Below the pieces are notes generated by a model. That model made no database searches. It saw only the letters and a program-made list of their open reading frames with translations, and had not been told where the DNA came from. This document shows, in pieces, positions 3,451 to 45,638 of a DNA stretch of 64,000 bases. Made by a program: the position numbers and the translations under genes. Numbering within the stretch: the stretch's first letter is position 1; each line of letters opens with the position of its first letter. Source of the DNA: an uncultured Ruminococcus sp. (lineage in GTDB: Bacteria > Bacillota > Clostridia > Oscillospirales > CAG-272); contig CACYWW010000005.1 of NCBI GenBank assembly GCA_902778145.1, forward strand, positions 65,013 through 129,012, in the 5' to 3' direction.

Positions 3451-4298
3451 GAAAATACGTTCTTCCGCTTCTTCTCTTTACCGTTTTCTCAGCCGTCGGC
3501 GTAACGCTGTGGCTTACAAAGGATAACTTATTCTATCTGTTCAACTTCGGATACATAGGCGGCGCGATCGCGCTCGGTCTTGTGCTTTTCATAAAAAAAT
3601 ACCGCCACGCGCGGCGCGTCACGCAGCTTCTCGTCGGCGGCTATATGCTTGTATATCTCGGGCTTATCTGTCGTGAGAACATGCAGCTCGAGGGCTTCTT
3701 CTATTACCTTTTCACCGGCGTCTTCGAGGCGGCGACGATCCACTACGCCGTGGCGAAGATACTCGGTCCTCTCCTGTTCGGACGCGGCTGGTGCGGCTAC
3801 GCCTGCTGGACCGCGGCTGTGCTCGATTTATTACCGTATAAGACGCCGCAAAGCCCGCGGAAAAAGCTCGGTTTTCTCAGATACATAATGTTTTCCGCAT
3901 CTCTGTTGTTCGTTTCGGCTCTGTTTCTTGCACATGTCGGAAATTTGGAGAAAATCATGTTCGCCGCTTTCATCTTCGGAAACGTTCTGTATTACGCCTC
4001 GGGCGTGATACTCGCGTTTGTAATGCGAGACAACCGCGCGTTCTGCAAATATCTCTGTCCCGTCACGGTGTTTCTTAAACCGATGAGTTATTTTTCGCTT
4101 TTGCGGGTAAGCTGTGACAAAAGCCGCTGCGTTGAATGCGGAAAATGCCGGAAGATCTGTCCGATGAACGTGGATATGACGGACAACAGCCGCCGCCGTG
4201 AAAACGGCACCGAATGCATCCTGTGCATGGAATGTGTGAAGGTGTGCCCGAAAAACGCGCTCGGCCACGGATCGGGCAAAGAAAAGACCGCACGCTGA
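3447..4298 (+). CDS. membrane 4Fe-4S ferredoxin-type protein (NapH/MauN-like)
   Basis: N-terminal TM helices, then Cys clusters 'CGYACW', 'CKYLCP', 'CVECGKCRKICP' and 'CILCMECVKVCP'. The start was moved to ATG 3447 (MRKYVLPLLL), overlapping the previous stop; the 52 upstream codons of ORF 3291 are Arg-rich overlap. Confidence 0.7.
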   Translation: MRKYVLPLLLFTVFSAVGVTLWLTKDNLFYLFNFGYIGGAIALGLVLFIKKYRHARRVTQLLVGGYMLVYLGLICRENMQLEGFFYYLFTGVFEAATIHYAVAKILGPLLFGRGWCGYACWTAAVLDLLPYKTPQSPRKKLGFLRYIMFSASLLFVSALFLAHVGNLEKIMFAAFIFGNVLYYASGVILAFVMRDNRAFCKYLCPVTVFLKPMSYFSLLRVSCDKSRCVECGKCRKICPMNVDMTDNSRRRENGTECILCMECVKVCPKNALGHGSGKEKTAR

Positions 4299-4311
4299 GG
4301 TGCGGTCCTGA

Positions 4312-5265
4312 TCATATCATTTCATGCGGGATGAGCTCAACCGTGCCGCCGCTCTCTCTGACCTTGAAGATCGAGACGTGCTCGTATGTTTCGTGCGTCG
4401 CGTTCGGCGTGTGGAACGTCATGTAAAGCGTACCGTCGTGCCCGTAGAACATCATCGAATGACCGCCGTCATAAATGAACTCCGGATTCATTTTATAGCT
4501 GTAGATCTCCCTGCTCTGATGCTTCCACTGACCCGTTATAAGACCTGTTTCCGAATATGATACGCCGACGGCGTACGCGTTTTTCTCGTATCCGGGCATG
4601 AAGTTCGACCACGTCATGATCATCCTTCCGCTGTCCGTGATACCTATGAACGGTCCGTCCGTCACTCCGCGATCGGTCCAGTCAGGTTCATTCGCGAGAA
4701 AGAGCTGCACAGGCTCCGATATGAGATGCGTCAGATCCGGCGAGAGCTTTGCCGCCGCCATCGCGCCGACACCGTCCGGCATACAAGTCCACTCGTGTAC
4801 GAAAACGAGCCAGGGCTGACCTTCCGGATCGACGTAAAGCGTACCATCGATGCAATCCCATCCGCTCGGGGAGACGCAGTAACCGGCGATATCCTCAAAC
4901 GGCCCGAGCGGACTGTCCGCGCGGTAGACAGAAATGCTCCTGTGATTTATCATTTTATTGAATGTTGACGTGAAAATATAGAATTTTCCCATATAATAGT
5001 GGCATTCCGGCGCCCAGAAAAAGTCCTTCACCCCGGGATGATCCGCCGGCTTTTCATATACGAGCAAGGGATCCGACCAGTTTTCAAGATCACGGCTGAC
5101 GAGAGCCTCGATACCGCGCTCATGAGCTGATCTGTAAAGGAAGTAGTCGCCGCCGGCGGGCAGGATGAACGGGTCGCGGCAGTAGAGTTTATCAGACAGC
5201 CTGTTCGGGAACTCTTTTATAAACGACGTATCGATCCCCGGTACGTTCATATTTGATATTTTCAT
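4312..5265 (-). CDS. glycoside hydrolase family 43-like (beta-propeller arabinofuranosidase/xylosidase type)
   Basis: 'RDPFILP', 'FWAPECHYY..GKFYIF', 'IDGTLYVD' and 'VHEW' blades are typical of GH43. No signal peptide. Confidence 0.75.
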   Translation of the reverse strand: MKISNMNVPGIDTSFIKEFPNRLSDKLYCRDPFILPAGGDYFLYRSAHERGIEALVSRDLENWSDPLLVYEKPADHPGVKDFFWAPECHYYMGKFYIFTSTFNKMINHRSISVYRADSPLGPFEDIAGYCVSPSGWDCIDGTLYVDPEGQPWLVFVHEWTCMPDGVGAMAAAKLSPDLTHLISEPVQLFLANEPDWTDRGVTDGPFIGITDSGRMIMTWSNFMPGYEKNAYAVGVSYSETGLITGQWKHQSREIYSYKMNPEFIYDGGHSMMFYGHDGTLYMTFHTPNATHETYEHVSIFKVRESGGTVELIPHEMI

Positions 5266-42743: not shown

Positions 42744-42772
42744 TTGACTTTTCGACGCAGTTGAATTATAAT
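42744..42772 (+). promoter_or_regulatory. promoter of the 174-aa ORF / RT module
   Basis: TTGACT, 17 nt, TATAAT. Confidence 0.6.
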
Positions 42773-42813
42773 GGAAAAAAGGTTCCTATATAAAAAAACA
42801 AGGAGATTGGGAA

Positions 42814-43338
42814 ATGGGATTTTTATCTAAACTGTTCGGCGGCAGCAAAGACGCCGAAAAAACAGCTCTCGATCTGCTCAAGAATCTTATGAATTCCGAT
42901 AAAAAGGAAGATCGTAAAGAGGAAAAGAAGCAGGAAGAAGCGCCCGCGCCGGCGCAGGACCCGAGCCCCGTTTATGACAGCACCGATTCCGGCCCCTCCG
43001 GTTTTTCATGGGGTGAAAGAATGCCCGCGGAAGAAAACCAGTACAACTACAACGGCACCTACAGAGAATACTTTGAGCATATCTTCCGCGACGACTTTTC
43101 ACAGTATCAGCTCAAAGCCGAGCCTCAGCCCGGCGGCAAGCGCATAGTGTACACGCTGTTCGACCTCGGGCGTACCGTTTGCGTCGTGGAGGTCATGCAT
43201 CAGGGCAGCGACTCAAAGAAGCTGCGCGAGAAGTGCCGGAGAAACGGTATAGGCTACTGCCGTTTCTACCACAACCATGACGGCTGGTGGAACACGCGTG
43301 AATACGTAGTCACCCGTATCAAAGAAGCCATAGGCTGA
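42814..43338 (+). CDS. hypothetical protein: disordered K/E/P-rich N-half, compact C-terminal domain (weak PD-(D/E)xK-like pattern)
   Basis: RBS AAGGAGA. The C-terminus is 'YFEHIF..F..Y.L....IVYTLFDLGRTVCVVEVMHQ.....KLREKCRRNGIGYCRFY'. Confidence 0.6.
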   Translation: MGFLSKLFGGSKDAEKTALDLLKNLMNSDKKEDRKEEKKQEEAPAPAQDPSPVYDSTDSGPSGFSWGERMPAEENQYNYNGTYREYFEHIFRDDFSQYQLKAEPQPGGKRIVYTLFDLGRTVCVVEVMHQGSDSKKLREKCRRNGIGYCRFYHNHDGWWNTREYVVTRIKEAIG

Positions 43339-43347
43339 CAAAACACA

Positions 43348-43489
43348 GAAAAAAGCGGAAAGAGAACGCCACGTGCGCCTGCGGAGGACCAGGCACGGAC
43401 GATAACGGAGCTTCGCAGGCAGCCCGTCCGTGTACGGCCCGGTACATCCCGTAATTATACGGGCTTTAAAGTCTTCTCTTTCCGTTTTT
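43348..43489 (+). other. inverted-repeat-bracketed structured spacer immediately upstream of the RT (candidate ncRNA)
   Basis: gAAAAAAGCGGAAAGAGAA (43348-43366) pairs with TTCTCTTTCCGTTTTT (43474-43489), 16 pairs with one bulge. The 107 nt between are GC-rich and contain hairpins, for example cccgta-atta-tacggg (43448-43463) and cacggacg/cgtccgtg (43394-43401 / 43425-43432). Confidence 0.35.
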
Positions 43490-43501
43490 ATATTTTTGAA
43501 A

Positions 43502-44689
43502 ATGTCACTGCTCGACAAGCTGAGAGATCCCGCAGTATGGGAAAAATTCTACGAATATAAATCCGGGCTCTCATGCCCCGGATCATACCTGAAGGAGCTG
43601 CGCGGCTTCATCGACCGGGCGGGTTATCTGCCCGTCTGCGATACGATCGATTCGGGCGGCGTTTTTCCGCTGCCGAAAAAAAGCGTTATAAGCAAGGTCG
43701 GCTCCGAAAAAAAGCGCACGGTCTACACGTACCCGGACGACGAGAACACGACCCTGAAGCTGCTCACGCATCTTCTCCTCCGCAGGTACGACGGACTTTT
43801 CTCCCCCGGCCTCTACTCCTTCCGTCCCGGAAGGACGGCAAAGGACGCGGTGCGGCGGCTGAGAAGGATTTCCCGCGGGATGTACAGCTATAAGACCGAC
43901 ATACACGATTATTTCAACTCAATACCGCTTGACAGATTTATCCCGCTTCTCCGCTCGGTGACCGGGGAAGACCCGCGTTTGTTCTCTTTCCTCTCTTCTC
44001 TTTTGCTTGAAAGCCGCGTGACAGACCGCGGCAGGGTGACGGAGGAACAAAAGGGGATCATGGCGGGAACGCCGCTGTCCGCGTTTTACGCGAATCTTTA
44101 CCTTTCGGAGCTCGACCGTCATTTCGACGGCGTACCGTACGCGCGGTATTCAGACGACATCATAGTCTTCGCAAAGGACAGGAACGAGCTTGACGGACAC
44201 GTTGAATACATAAATTCCGCGCTCTCCCGCGCGGGTCTCACGGTCAACCCGAAAAAGGAGACGTACGGGGAGCCGGACGAGGGCTTCGTTTTTCTCGGCT
44301 TCATCTGCTCGGACGGCGTGACGGACATCGCGCCGGTGACCGTTGTCAAGCTGAAGAAGAAAATGCGGCGCAAGGCGCGTTCGCTCGTCCGCTGGTACAA
44401 CAGGACGGACTCCGATCCGGAGCGAGCCGCCGCCGCTTTCATCCGTGTCTTCAACCGCAAGCTCCTCGACGACCCGCAGGGCAACGAGCTCTCCTGGAGC
44501 CGCTGGTTCTTCTCAGTCATAAACACGGACAAAAGCCTGCACGAGATCGACCTTTACGCTCAGGACTGTATACGGTACATAATATCCGGTTCGCGTAAAA
44601 AAACGCGCTTCCGTGTGACGTACGACGACATGAAGGCGCTTGGGTACAGAAGCCTTGTGCACGAATACCATAAGGATTCAAAATCATGA
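43502..44689 (+). CDS. stand-alone reverse transcriptase (RNA-directed DNA polymerase), class unresolved
   Basis: RT motifs are 'YSFRPGRTAKDA', 'TDIHDYFNSIP', 'GIMAGTPLSAFYANLYL', catalytic 'YSDDIIVFA', 'GLTVNPKKE' and 'GFVFLGF', followed by a ~130-aa basic thumb-like tail. The start is uncertain: ATG 43502 has no obvious SD, and GTG 43430 is the alternative. Confidence 0.85.
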   Translation: MSLLDKLRDPAVWEKFYEYKSGLSCPGSYLKELRGFIDRAGYLPVCDTIDSGGVFPLPKKSVISKVGSEKKRTVYTYPDDENTTLKLLTHLLLRRYDGLFSPGLYSFRPGRTAKDAVRRLRRISRGMYSYKTDIHDYFNSIPLDRFIPLLRSVTGEDPRLFSFLSSLLLESRVTDRGRVTEEQKGIMAGTPLSAFYANLYLSELDRHFDGVPYARYSDDIIVFAKDRNELDGHVEYINSALSRAGLTVNPKKETYGEPDEGFVFLGFICSDGVTDIAPVTVVKLKKKMRRKARSLVRWYNRTDSDPERAAAAFIRVFNRKLLDDPQGNELSWSRWFFSVINTDKSLHEIDLYAQDCIRYIISGSRKKTRFRVTYDDMKALGYRSLVHEYHKDSKS

Positions 44690-44729
44690 ATGATGAATTC
44701 AGAATTCTTCATTAATGTCCGGTATTGTG

Positions 44730-44758
44730 TTGACAAAACGCGTTTTCGGGGTTATAAT
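44730..44758 (+). promoter_or_regulatory. promoter of the alpha/beta hydrolase gene
   Basis: TTGACA, 17 nt, TATAAT (perfect consensus). Confidence 0.65.
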
Positions 44759-44783
44759 TATAAAAAATCAGCGGGAGAAAGTC

Positions 44784-45638
44784 ATGAGATCATTTGACGG
44801 AAAAGAGCTTTACACATACCTTTGGGACGACGTGAAGGATCCGGTCGGAGTCGTACAGCTCTGCCACGGCATGTGCGAACATCTGGGCAGATACGACGGC
44901 TTTGCGCGGTTCCTCAATAAAAACGGATACATAGTTTTCGGTGACGACCACAGAAGCTACGGCAAAACGGACAACAACTCGGGCTACTGCGACGGCGAAT
45001 ACGTGGGCGACACGGTCAGAGACCTCGTATTCATAAACGAATACCTCAAGAAGGAATACGGTCTTCCTATCACGTTCATAGGCCACAGCTACGGAAGCGT
45101 ACTGGGTCAGAGGTTCGTACAGCTCAACACGGGGATAAAGAACGCCGTGCTTACCGGAACGCTGACGATACCGCACGCGCTCTGCCGTCTCGGACAGGGC
45201 GTCATGGCGCCGGTAAAGGCGATAGCGCCGCATGCGGGCGTCGCGCTTTCGAGCGCGAAATTCCCGGACGAGGACGAGGCACCGGATTCGTTCCTCACAA
45301 AGGATACGGAGATCAGACGTCAGTACGCCGAGGATCCGCTCTGCGGCGGAAAATCGTCGATGAGATATTACTACGGCTTTATAAAGCTGATGGGTGACGC
45401 GACAAAAAAGGCGAACGTCAAGGCGATCCCGGACAGTCTTCCGATAGGGATATTCAGCGGCAAAGACGACGGTATCGGGCATTTCGGCAAGGACCCGCGA
45501 AAGGTGTATGAGACGTACAAAAAGTACGGCAAGAACGCGTATCTGAAGCTCTACGAAAACGACCGGCACGAGATCCTGAACGAGACTGACAAGGATCGCG
45601 TGATGAACGACATCCTCGAATTCATAAAAAACAACTGA
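44784..45638 (+). CDS. alpha/beta hydrolase (lysophospholipase / monoacylglycerol-lipase-like)
   Basis: 'CHGMCEH' oxyanion region, nucleophile elbow 'GHSYGS', and C-terminal 'DRHEILNE' His. Start at ATG 44784 with GGGAGAAAG upstream. Confidence 0.8.
   Translation: MRSFDGKELYTYLWDDVKDPVGVVQLCHGMCEHLGRYDGFARFLNKNGYIVFGDDHRSYGKTDNNSGYCDGEYVGDTVRDLVFINEYLKKEYGLPITFIGHSYGSVLGQRFVQLNTGIKNAVLTGTLTIPHALCRLGQGVMAPVKAIAPHAGVALSSAKFPDEDEAPDSFLTKDTEIRRQYAEDPLCGGKSSMRYYYGFIKLMGDATKKANVKAIPDSLPIGIFSGKDDGIGHFGKDPRKVYETYKKYGKNAYLKLYENDRHEILNETDKDRVMNDILEFIKNN

Follow-up and report, generated by a model that had tools for sequence, protein, structure and literature searches.

A pseudoknotted RT-5 RNA and its predicted partnership with a UG26 reverse transcriptase

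In the DRT2, DRT9, DRT10 and UG27 systems the reverse transcriptase (RT) uses a cognate noncoding RNA (ncRNA) as its template (PMC9226505; PMC12483538; 10.1101/2025.10.16.682844; 10.64898/2026.09.22.753630). Such ncRNA-templated systems have repeatedly yielded unexpected biochemistry (de novo genes, poly-dA, telomerase-like repeats) and attract interest as DNA-writing tools. The UG26 group of UG/Abi RTs is among those still lacking a reported partner RNA, product or function. Mestre et al. (2022; PMC9226505) predicted no ncRNA for this group, reported a COG2852 companion in 9/35 UG26 members and graded its association with defence as inconclusive; beyond that study, the literature searched gave only one cold-seep virome preprint, by its title. 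RT-5 was described as a motif in the vicinity of RT genes (Weinberg et al. 2017; PMC5737381), with no RT group, accessory gene or function assigned to it there, and has had the status of an orphan in Rfam since 2017. A literature search for 'RT-5 RNA', 'RT-5 motif' and RF03026 found no mention of it.

Here, RT-5 RNA is tied to the UG26 RT through a locus in a 64,000-nucleotide stretch of DNA (the window, to which all coordinates refer). From comparative sequence analysis we define the full RNA, with its closing stem, pseudoknot and predicted 5' and 3' ends, and find that RT-5 RNA can be an independent gene. The RT-5/UG26 pair is a directly testable candidate for a further ncRNA-templated RT system.

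Family membership and fold of the RNA

The RNA lies between an accessory gene and the RT gene (Table 1). It matches the Rfam family RF03026 (RT-5 RNA) at 43373-43477 with 87.7 bits, against a gathering score of 45.7 (E 2e-17), and the model is covered in full (positions 1-104 of 104). Judged by this match, the window feature is an ordinary instance of an already catalogued family and not a new one. The RT-5 Rfam model agrees with the window RNA in its P1-P2-P2b and P3 helices and in the conserved nucleotides. Unlike the RNA described here, it is without the closing stem P0 and the U-tail, because it spans only 43373 to 43477, and in the cmscan structure line both pseudoknot strands are left unpaired. 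Our own covariance model (R1) scores 136.7 bits at 43346-43494.

Table 1. Features of the RT-5/UG26 locus in window coordinates.
Feature	Coordinates	Strand	Remarks
Sigma-70-like promoter, TTGACT-17-TATAAT, 11/12	42744..42772	+	Upstream of accessory gene
Accessory gene, 174 aa, 'RTasCOG2852' (COG2852/Vsr-like)	42814..43338	+	PADLOC 1.5e-59
ncRNA, RF03026 member extended by closing stem	43351..43489	+	~139-148 nt with U-tail; Rfam match and own covariance model
P0 5' arm, purine-rich (AAAAGCGGAAAGAGAA)	43351..43366	+	Pairs with 43474-43489; RNAalifold
Junction J0 with conserved ACGC	43367..43376	+	Alignment A2 columns; C43369 invariant, G43368 at least 90% conserved
Pseudoknot 5' strand, GCCUGCG	43377..43383	+	Pairs with 43414-43420
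P1 5' strand	43385..43390	+	Pairs with 43436-43441; Rfam consensus structure; 5/6 pairs covary, 81.9% of cells
P2 5' strand	43393..43400	+	Pairs with 43426-43433
Variable internal loop (hinge) between P2 and P2b	43401..43408	+	Sequence-variable in alignments
P2b hairpin	43409..43424	+	43409-12 with 43421-24
Pseudoknot 3' strand, CGCAGGC	43414-43420	+	Within the 8-nt loop of P2b
3' strands of P2 (43426-33) and P1 (43436-41)	43426..43441	+	Invariant GUAC at 43432-35
Junction J1/3, GUACAU	43442..43447	+	G43442 and U43443 invariant
P3 hairpin, CCCGUA-AUUA-UACGGG	43448..43463	+	6/6 pairs covary, 95.3% of cells
Junction J3/0 with conserved UUYAA (43465-69)	43464..43473	+	Near-invariant T120, T121, A123 and A124 of A2
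P0 3' arm (43474-89, pyrimidine-rich; TTCTCTTTCCGTTTTT) and U-rich tract UUUUUAUAUUUUU	43474..43498	+	Probable termination signal, ncRNA 3' end
Reverse transcriptase, 395 aa, UG26 (class 2 UG/Abi)	43502..44689	+	PADLOC RT_UG26; Pfam RVT_1

Attention had been drawn to this region by a sequence-only reading, which described a long inverted repeat around a GC-rich interior just before the RT gene. The two arms are 16 nt each, 94% complementary and spaced by 107 nt. That reading let the 5' arm begin at 43348 and counted one bulged G/C. The 16-nt pairing arms stand, but nucleotides 43348-50 have no partner inside 43474-43489, and the supposed bulge is a G43355.U43485 wobble, the sole non-Watson-Crick position between the arms. 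Its other local observations are borne out: the 107-nt interior is richer in G+C (62.6%) than the window (54%), a U-rich tract continues the 3' arm, 12 nt separate this arm from the RT ATG at 43502, and a Shine-Dalgarno sequence is absent, with no GGAG, GAGG or AGGA in the 20 nt before the ATG.

The minimum free energy of the fold is -62.6 kcal/mol, compared with -42.7 +/- 3.9 kcal/mol for 200 dinucleotide shuffles (z = -5.1), none of which was as good. Covariation among homologous loci, the check that had been suggested for the repeat, is seen in every helix across 45 genomic and 80 metagenomic homologues. In the 45 distinct homologues 92.2% of cells are paired, against 74.1% with shuffled columns and 42-50% with slid partners, and compensatory changes occur in 42 of the 47 pairs. 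A MAFFT alignment that was not fitted to the structure still gives 88.6% paired cells against 75.4%, with the pseudoknot at 100%. RNAalifold independently predicts P0 and also recovers P1, P2 and P2b.

The outer inverted repeat does form a closing helix, as had been proposed. All 16 pairs of P0 have changed on both sides, with 92.2% of cells paired (13/16 pairs and 85.5% of cells on the MAFFT-only alignment), and the 5' arm is 85% purine across homologues. The pseudoknot pairing holds in 98.7% of cells on alignment A3 and 100% on A2, with compensatory changes in five of seven pairs; this support is not a product of fitting, since the pseudoknot was excluded from the aligning model. The G43393.U43433 wobble at the base of P2 is invariant (45/45 and 43/43 sequences), and the hinge loop is longer, at 18-25 nt, in three homologues (L004, L017 and L039). 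In sequence the RNA has 14 invariant and 20 near-invariant positions.

Taken from these alignments, the flagged region is a real, conserved, pseudoknotted ncRNA of ~145 nt. In this architecture the closing stem P0 joins the 5' and 3' ends around a three-way junction. P1-P2-P2b is a long bent hairpin, the apical loop of which pairs with a strand just 5' of the hairpin base to form the pseudoknot. The short hairpin P3 and the conserved single-stranded junctions ACGC, GUAC, GUACAU and UUYAA round off the fold. Two of the hairpins picked out earlier are real and conserved, namely cccgta-ATTA-tacggg (43448-53/43458-63) and the cacggacg/cgtccgtg helix (43393/4-43400/1 with 43425/6-43432/3). The helix said to compete with the latter (43372-75/43394-97 and 43378-81/43390-93) is present here without conservation: 63.1% of its cells pair, as in shuffled columns. 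The idea of alternative folds therefore fails, since one helix is not conserved and the other coexists with the pseudoknot. The true competitor for those bases is the conserved pseudoknot itself, formed by GCCUGCG and CGCAGGC.

The reverse transcriptase, its neighbours and the linkage of the RNA

The RT matches the PADLOC RT_UG26 profile over positions 1-397 of 398 with 543 bits (7e-164). The next-best group is UG4 with 107 bits, followed by UG17 (DRT10; 89 bits), UG27 (88 bits) and Drt9. The active-site motif YSDD is intact, and the protein ends in the conserved motif GYRSLVHEYH; in every homologue the C-terminal [YF][YH] motif contains one Tyr or more. The AF2 model has a pLDDT of 91, and its best folds are the group II intron RT GsI-IIC, G2L4 and DRT9. 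Group II intron RTs align with a TMq of 0.69-0.73, DRT9 with 0.57-0.61 and retron RTs with 0.43-0.46, while the DRT2 structure ranks 36th among the structural matches.

The accessory protein has a disordered N-terminal segment of ~65 amino acids and a C-terminal domain with an alpha-beta-beta-beta-alpha-beta-alpha core, for which AF2 gives a pLDDT above 90 (residues 70-174). No match was obtained against Pfam and PDB sequences. The best Foldseek match is the restriction endonuclease EcoT38I (E 0.027). An active Vsr/PD-(D/E)XK nuclease was considered as a candidate identity: the nuclease likeness of the fold is weak, and the family has no conserved acidic or Lys triad. In 39 of 45 genomic loci a homologue of this protein is encoded directly upstream of the RNA.

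Linkage between RNA and RT is found from either side. The RNA is present in 45 of the 46 loci that were found via the RT (L001-L046, all RT matches of full or near-full length), and 42 of the 45 genomic RNA homologues lie directly upstream of an RT. All 80 metagenomic loci found through the RNA sequence pattern are true matches, and where enough DNA is available the RT follows directly downstream in 58 of 65. The exceptions in gene order are informative. Two archaeal loci have the RNA downstream of the RT, one locus (L014) has it on the opposite strand 2.6 kb from the RT, and in four (L066, L087, L095 and L121) it lies 4-7 kb upstream of the RT with unrelated genes between. The stand-alone RNA genes, together with L022 (Ruminococcaceae bacterium YAD3003, a rumen isolate) and L045, carry a TTGAT-like -35 element and an extended -10 element, TGTATAAT, that ends 8-9 nt before P0; transcription of the stand-alone genes is predicted to start 1-3 nt before P0.

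These comparisons point to the RNA as a dedicated partner of the adjacent UG26 RT. Because it also occurs downstream of the RT or as a stand-alone gene with its own promoter, the RNA is assigned as a trans-acting partner and not merely a leader or terminator. The earlier proposal of a conserved structured RNA that belongs to the adjacent RT, in the manner of DRT2 and DRT9, is thus upheld: a class 2 UG/Abi RT occurs with a cognate ncRNA.

In the window the sigma-70-like promoter upstream of the accessory gene is likely to serve the whole accessory gene-ncRNA-RT transcription unit. No second promoter-like site was found on the + strand between it and the RNA. A weak site (9/12) lies within the RNA at 43465-43494, and its equivalents in homologues are explained by the UUYAA motif and the U-tail. 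The RT stop codon is followed by a promoter 41 nt on and after that by the next gene.

A run of at least four U residues abuts P0 in 91 of 121 scored RNAs and is absent in the other 30. Compact hairpin-plus-U terminators follow 6/30 RNAs without the run and 5/91 with it, a modest difference (Fisher p = 0.026). The calls come from a strict stem-loop rule, checked against an internal control, in place of an RNAfold-based classifier with a false-positive rate as high as its signal. Outer stem and U-run probably also end the ncRNA transcript, as a secondary role. A standard terminator scan did not call P0 with its U-tract, and P0 encloses 107 structured nucleotides, unlike a canonical intrinsic terminator. 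The suggestion that the element could equally be a large terminator or attenuator thus survives in part. The stem and U-run probably terminate, but the two readings are not equally likely, since archaeal loci place the RNA downstream of the RT and other loci have it as a free-standing promoter-to-terminator gene kilobases away.

The 16 neighbouring ORFs of the window are housekeeping genes without meaningful PADLOC matches, and no defence genes were found near the RT. A peptide scan of IMG/VR found no relatives of the RT, the 15 DNA-pattern matches in IMG/VR all failed the covariance model, and tblastn at 1e-20 gave no match in phage and plasmid collections. Rumen and gut Clostridia, Bacteroidales and methanogenic archaea share the system. 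Its role may lie outside phage defence, given the housekeeping neighbours, the absence from phage and plasmid collections and the spread across Clostridia, Bacteroidales and archaea.

Proposed function and alternatives

The explanation that we favour, with a probability of about 0.7, combines a partner RNA, a ribonucleoprotein, internal templating of cDNA, tyrosine priming and termination. In the window, transcription from the accessory-gene promoter would produce the RNA as the 3' portion of the accessory transcript, which would end at P0 and its U-run; where the run is missing, a separate hairpin with U residues would take over. The RNA is predicted to extend from about 43349-43351 to 43489-43498, and cotranscription with the accessory gene makes a processed 5' end likely here. 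The RT open reading frame would be reached by read-through only, so that RNA would be plentiful and RT scarce. On the pattern of DRT2, DRT9, DRT10 and UG27, the RT would bind the RNA as a ribonucleoprotein and copy a defined internal segment of it into cDNA. Priming would most likely be from the conserved C-terminal Tyr, Y389 of ...LVHEYH, and the small accessory protein with its nuclease fold would serve as cofactor or effector. On this analogy the RNA most likely both scaffolds and templates cDNA synthesis, and the C-terminal Tyr may prime it.

An RNA that partners the RT without ever being copied would account for part of these observations. It could hold the RT or accessory protein inactive, respond to a trigger or direct the complex towards a target nucleic acid, and any DNA synthesis would be untemplated or templated elsewhere. 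The strong conservation of structure and sequence (14 invariant and 20 near-invariant positions) is in line with such a scaffold-only role; it suits a scaffold for protein binding no less than a template. No template signature of the known class 2 systems was found in RT-5 RNA, and class 1 UG/Abi RTs make DNA without a template (PMC12483538). UG26 belongs to class 2, however, and all class 2 UG/Abi systems studied to date (DRT2, DRT9, DRT10, UG27 and the class 2 half of DRT3) copy their ncRNA; we regard the uncopied RNA as unlikely. It is very unlikely that the RNA is purely a cis-acting leader, terminator or attenuator tuning RT expression. Its position between both ORFs, its end 12 nt before the ATG, the entry of the 3' arm into the U-tract and the U-run or separate terminator after the RNA in most loci would all suit such a role. 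The RNA is nevertheless found elsewhere downstream, on the opposite strand, or kilobases off with its own promoter and terminator, and a pseudoknotted, sequence-conserved structure of 47 pairs far exceeds the needs of termination. There is also no conserved antiterminator pairing, since the lone candidate helix fails the conservation test.

The comparison with retrons made in the sequence-only reading is not supported, as the RT is UG26 and a pseudoknotted three-way junction takes the place of msr and msd hairpins in the interior. A retron would have P0 as its a1/a2 repeat, the conserved G as its branching G and 2'-5' branched msDNA as its product; a closing inverted repeat does adjoin the RT gene, G43368 (at least 90% conserved) lies 2 nt past the 5' arm, and Weinberg et al. 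(PMC5737381) speculated that many RT motifs are retrons. Yet the RT scores 543 bits as UG26 with no retron RT model among its best 25 PADLOC matches, retron RT structures fit it more poorly than group II intron RTs or DRT9, the interior has the sequence-conserved pseudoknot in place of a long msd hairpin, and the RNA can be downstream of or far from the RT, which leaves a retron highly improbable. A group II intron relic, such as a DIVa-like RT-binding stem where the RT ORF begins, is scarcely plausible, even though the closest solved folds of the RT are group II intron RTs, some homologues are named 'group II intron reverse transcriptase domain-containing protein' by NCBI and the RNA abuts the RT start codon. 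No Rfam group II intron family matches at E up to 10 between 42500 and 45000, no structured RNA follows the RT, stand-alone RNA genes exist, and Weinberg et al. (PMC5737381) rejected this reading for RT motifs.

Within the favoured reading of a templating partner RNA, a further combination is possible and is put forward tentatively: UG26 RT, RT-5 RNA and the nuclease-fold protein could make up a ribonucleoprotein DNA-synthesis system of an uncharacterised type, with a novel output and possibly a non-defence role. Its product would then differ from a gene-encoding concatemer, poly-dA, a tandem repeat or a short hairpin cDNA, and the catalytically degenerate Vsr-like protein would be a cofactor of cDNA synthesis and not a nuclease.

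Comparison with characterised systems

The locus shares with the class 2 templated systems a conserved structured ncRNA that is genetically linked to the RT. The resemblance to retron msr-msd RNAs lies in the inverted repeat that closes the RNA beside the RT gene, P0 (16 bp, covarying) being the formal equivalent of a1/a2, and the differences lie in RT family, interior architecture and flexibility of gene order.

In DRT2 (UG2; PMC12596737; 10.1101/2024.05.08.593200) the ncRNA, which contains pseudoknots, likewise immediately precedes the RT. [quoted passage not shown] As for an endless ORF of the DRT2 type, a frame stays open on concatenation in 21-37 of 126 RNAs (17-30%) on either strand, a weak test since the RNA boundaries were chosen arbitrarily, and the candidate was rejected.

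DRT9 (UG28; PMC12483538) likewise has an ncRNA upstream of the RT that is both scaffold and template. Its priming by paired C-terminal tyrosines is matched by the C-terminal Tyr of UG26, and DRT9 is among the better structural matches of the RT. DRT9 RNAs carry a universally conserved poly-U template that yields poly-dA, whereas RT-5 is without a universal U-tract. In the search for such a template the sole U-run was the tail after P0, missing in 30/121 RNAs, and J3/0 is UUYAA.

DRT10 (UG17; 10.1101/2025.10.16.682844; 10.64898/2026.04.29.721553) has a class 2 RT in a tripartite locus, as here, and its ncRNA resembles RT-5 in being independently expressed, structured and stabilised by a basal stem. 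It primes from a C-terminal Ser/Tyr of the RT, and UG26 has a conserved C-terminal Tyr. DRT10 is nevertheless a different UG group from the window RT (89 versus 543 bits), and unlike in DRT10 no SLATT model is among the PADLOC matches of the 16 ORFs around the RT. A covarying A-B-A' repeat like that of DRT10 was not found in a scan for direct repeats of 3-4 nt, at most 13 consensus columns apart at fixed alignment positions, a length above the 2-nt repeats that DRT10 RNAs in part use; only an invariant GUA..GUA and GCAGGCAG appeared.

UG27 (Li et al. 2026 preprint, 10.64898/2026.09.22.753630) has a related class 2 RT with the same YSDD motif. Its ncRNA units are akin to RT-5, being ~150 nt long and pseudoknotted, with a basal hairpin and short conserved motifs that include UUYA. 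In prophages, UG27 RNAs occur as arrays of units that differ in sequence, while RT-5 is single-copy, sequence-conserved and chromosomal, and UG27 has two accessory proteins where the RT-5 locus has one, unrelated to them. The central hairpin of UG27 is copied into a cDNA of 50-100 nt; in RT-5 the UUYAA motif sits 3' of P3. The UG27 start motif AUCN7UANAG has a partial counterpart in the window (AUC-N7-UAUAC, 43446-60), which we treat as chance because the other homologues inspected by eye lack it.

With the UG26 group itself (PMC9226505) the locus agrees in two respects: the RT fits the UG26 profile end to end and the reported COG2852 companion is present, although the companion is more frequent in our set (39/45 loci by iterated HMM) than in that of Mestre et al. 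(9/35).

Family assignment and genomic neighbourhood

The structured region ahead of the reverse transcriptase (RT) gene matches the RT-5 RNA family (Rfam RF03026) over all 104 model positions, with a score of 87.7 bits (gathering score 45.7, E = 2e-17). This family belongs to a set of 19 'RT' motifs detected close to reverse transcriptase genes; they were speculated to be retron or DGR parts, with no function assigned (Weinberg et al. 2017, PMC5737381). The neighbouring RT belongs to UG26, a class-2 UG/Abi group, with UG4, UG17 (DRT10), UG27 and Drt9 as the next-best PADLOC profiles. The accessory protein encoded upstream, RTasCOG2852, adjoins 9 of 35 UG26 RTs in the survey of Mestre et al. 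(2022, PMC9226505), where ncRNAs are predicted for UG2, UG3+UG8, UG28 and UG27, not for UG26, and where the defence association of UG26 is inconclusive. Our literature search found no mention of RT-5 RNA by name. Both the RNA family to which the feature belongs and the adjacent RT group were already catalogued; the general guess of the sequence-only reading, a structured RNA belonging to the RT, was correct. Our analysis adds the link between RT-5 and UG26, the closing stem, a pseudoknot, predicted transcript ends and evidence for the RNA as a gene in its own right.

The neighbour genes are all housekeeping genes (pyruvate-formate-lyase-like enzyme and activase, alcohol dehydrogenase, AraC regulator, CTP synthase, CCA-adding enzyme, RNase R and HflX) and none of the genes around the locus has a meaningful PADLOC match. 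Relatives were found neither in phage or plasmid collections nor in IMG/VR. The longest hydrolase ORF contains a perfect promoter, 41 nt beyond the RT stop, and gene calls on identical contigs start the hydrolase about 95 nt after that stop, so this gene is a separate transcription unit, with its true start probably near 44784.

Features of the locus (window positions)
Feature	Position	Strand	Remarks
Promoter TTGACT-17-TATAAT	42744–42772		likely the one for the RNA
preQ1-I riboswitch match	42773–42807		15.8 bits, E 6.8, gathering score 39
Accessory ORF	42814–43338	+	174 aa; PADLOC RTasCOG2852, 1.5e-59
Accessory residues 1–65	42814–43008		low-complexity
P0 arms	43351–43366/43474–43489	+	closing stem
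ACGC	43366–43369	+	conserved single strand
Rfam RF03026 match	43373–43477	+	RT-5 RNA
Pseudoknot	43377–43383/43414–43420		5' tail GCCUGCG with P2b loop CGCAGGC
P2-base G·U wobble	43393/43433
GUA copies	43432–43434, 43442–43444		10 nt apart
GUAC	43432–43435	+	conserved single strand
GUACAU	43442–43447	+	conserved single strand
UUYAA	43465–43469	+	conserved single strand
RT ORF	43502–44689	+	395 aa; PADLOC RT_UG26 end to end, 7e-164
Alpha/beta-hydrolase ORF (longest)	44715–45638
Sigma-70 promoter TTGACA-17-TATAAT	44730–44758		12/12

Fold and covariation

The inverted repeat reported by the sequence-only reading was recovered by a repeat search as 16 nt arms, 94% complementary and 107 nt apart. 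Their sole non-Watson–Crick position is a wobble, G43355·U43485, so the bulged G/C that had been proposed is not required. The GC-rich interior (62.6% G+C versus 54% for the window), the 12 nt gap between the 3' arm and the RT ATG and the lack of a Shine–Dalgarno-like hexamer before this ATG in the window all stand as described; GGAG is present before the RT start in most homologues. Folded as RNA, 43340–43502 has a minimum free energy of −62.6 kcal/mol versus −42.7 ± 3.9 for 200 dinucleotide shuffles (z = −5.1), none of which reached the native value.

Scanning a single genome for each species with peptide seeds yielded 49 loci (RT identities 38–62%) in rumen and gut Clostridia, Bacteroidales and Methanomassiliicoccales archaea. 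A covariance model (R1; 148 positions, 40 pairs), based on 43 upstream regions aligned with MAFFT and supplemented with the outer stem, matches the window once. Of the 46 loci whose RT matched over its full or nearly full length, 45 gave an RNA hit with R1. Standard pairs fill 92.2% of the pair cells in the resulting 45-locus alignment, versus 74.1% for shuffled columns and 42–50% when partners are slid by 1–3 columns. The covariation that had been proposed as a check is present, with two-sided changes in 42 of 47 pairs and at 16/16 pairs of P0. Arm pairs of P0 include GCGGAAAGAGAA/UUCUCUUUCCGU in the window, GCAGACUGAGAA/UUCUCAGUCUGC and GGGAGGGGGGA/UUCCCCCCUCCC in two homologous loci (L003 and L028) and CACGAGAGG/CCCUCUCGUG in the archaeal locus L042. 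For the pseudoknot, 98.7% of cells are paired and 5/7 pairs show compensatory changes; as R1 does not include this element, the alignment was made without reference to it. Two further checks against fitting were made: a MAFFT-only alignment gives 88.6% pairing versus 75.4% shuffled (pseudoknot 100%), and RNAalifold independently recovers P0, P1, P2 and P2b. The second helix from which alternative folds had been proposed pairs at 63.1% versus 62.7% by chance and was rejected.

These results give an architecture in which a junction closed by P0 holds the bent hairpin P1–P2–P2b, hairpin P3 and conserved single strands, the apical loop of the bent hairpin folding back on the strand at its own base. 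The Rfam model spans the interior of this RNA only.

Several smaller regularities were seen. In all homologues P0 is strictly asymmetric despite its covarying sequence (85% purine in the 5' arm, 12% in the 3' arm), and terminator U-richness accounts for only the distal few pairs. The wobble at the base of P2 is unvarying (45/45), and two GUA copies, the GU of each invariant, flank the 3' strand of P1. The wobble and the GUA repeats are possible protein-recognition or alignment sites.

Position, predicted promoter and probable 3' end of the RNA

In both archaeal loci the RNA follows the RT stop at a distance of about 150 nt. A DNA pattern derived from the RNA alone gave at least 120 metagenomic matches; among those listed, 80/80 loci were confirmed by the covariance model and 65 have at least 400 nt of downstream sequence. 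A UG26 RT directly follows the RNA in 58 of these 65, lies 4–7 kb beyond it in four, with unrelated genes (GH43, LytTR, DUF7010, HD-domain protein) intervening, and is absent from the contig DNA examined in three. The stand-alone RNAs, together with loci L022 and L045, carry a TTGAT-like −35 and an extended −10 (TGTATAAT) that ends 8–9 nt before the first P0 base, which places the predicted transcription start at the foot of this stem. At the other end, a U-run of at least four abuts P0 in 91 of 121 RNAs. Compact hairpin+U terminators occur in the next 110 nt of 6/30 RNAs without this run versus 5/91 with it (about fourfold; Fisher p = 0.026; control windows 6/107), and RNAfold gives further imperfect hairpin+U elements in longer spacers. 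From these sequence features we infer a promoter-to-terminator unit with its ends clamped by P0.

No promoter was found between the accessory gene and the RNA in the window, and the likely one precedes the accessory gene; the RNA would then form the 3' portion of a transcript shared with that gene, and the RT would be reached by read-through only. Such expression agrees with reports on UG2 and UG28, in which ncRNA greatly outnumbers RT mRNA (Mestre et al. 2022, PMC9226505). The sub-threshold preQ1-I match in the 5' UTR is probably due to chance.

Individual loci depart from this layout. In the archaeal MAGs (L042, 5338–5496; L044, 5342–5500) the RNA is diverged, the RT is UG26-like and a COG2852-like gene is missing, which suggests transfer between rumen bacteria and methanogens. 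Locus L014 has the accessory gene and RNA (757–1418, −) and the RT (3992–5215, +) on opposite strands, 2.6 kb apart; the module is split or rearranged with both parts intact. In the stand-alone lineage (L066, 2427–4811, −; L121, 8922–11306, +; L087) no COG2852-like gene was found, and the RT start codon abuts the stop of a 794-residue HD-domain (HD_5) protein, which might be an alternative partner or reflect synteny alone. Strongly structured GC-rich inserts of 250–276 nt separate RNA and RT in L006 (3757–4000, with two ∼45 nt direct repeats) and L016 (947–1217); they resemble small repeat elements inserted beyond the terminator of the RNA.

Proteins of the locus and comparison with class-2 systems

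An iterated HMM places the accessory protein immediately upstream of the RNA in 39 of 45 loci. Searches of Pfam and of PDB sequences gave no match for it, and 183/183 relatives are annotated 'hypothetical'. Only the C-terminal ∼110 residues of the protein are conserved; residues 1–65 are predicted to be disordered (pLDDT 46–61) and vary in length. The C-terminal domain is predicted as α-β-β-β-α-β-α (pLDDT > 90), and its sole notable structural match is a restriction endonuclease (E 0.027). Nuclease activity is doubtful, since Glu126, the one acidic residue invariant among close relatives, is lost in distant subfamilies. [quoted passage not shown]

We take the RNA to be a trans-acting partner of the RT, with a probability of about 0.9. 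The sequence-only reading held that it could equally be a terminator or attenuator, and a U-run does commonly follow P0; RNAs downstream of the RT, on the opposite strand or 4–7 kb away with a predicted promoter of their own argue against this, and a pure leader or terminator is very improbable. The RT model (pLDDT 91), which retains the YSDD active-site motif, resembles the group II intron RT GsI-IIC (TMq 0.69–0.73), G2L4 and DRT9 (0.57–0.61) more than DRT2 or retron RTs (0.43–0.46). A retron, as once speculated for these motifs, is still less probable, and a group II intron relic, for all the likeness to GsI-IIC, the least probable of these readings.

In all characterised class-2 UG/Abi systems the ncRNA is both scaffold and template. 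DRT2 uses the 3' end of the RNA as primer to give a concatemeric gene (PMC12596737; 10.1101/2024.05.08.593200), DRT9 makes Tyr-primed poly-dA from a poly-U tract (PMC12483538), DRT10 makes Ser/Tyr-primed tandem repeats via an A-B-A' loop (10.1101/2025.10.16.682844) and UG27 makes a 50–100 nt cDNA of the central hairpin in ∼150 nt pseudoknotted units (10.64898/2026.09.22.753630). The RT-5 RNAs have no conserved concatemer frame and no universal U-tract, no covarying A-B-A' repeat of 3–4 nt was found in their alignments and inspection by eye did not show the UG27 start motif; the class is clear, and none of these four signatures places the template segment. An RNA that served as scaffold only is unlikely. 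By analogy with these systems, the RT-5 RNA would form an RNP with the RT in trans and, rather probably, be copied in part into DNA by it; the function of the RT-5/UG26 pair is experimentally tractable. Priming would probably be from the RT C-terminal tyrosine: the tail motif G[YF]xSLVxx[YF][YH] is conserved and always holds at least one tyrosine, archaea included. DNA synthesis starts from two C-terminal tyrosines in DRT9 (PMC12483538) and from a C-terminal serine or tyrosine in DRT10 (10.1101/2025.10.16.682844; 10.64898/2026.04.29.721553), a parallel to UG26 that is suggestive only.
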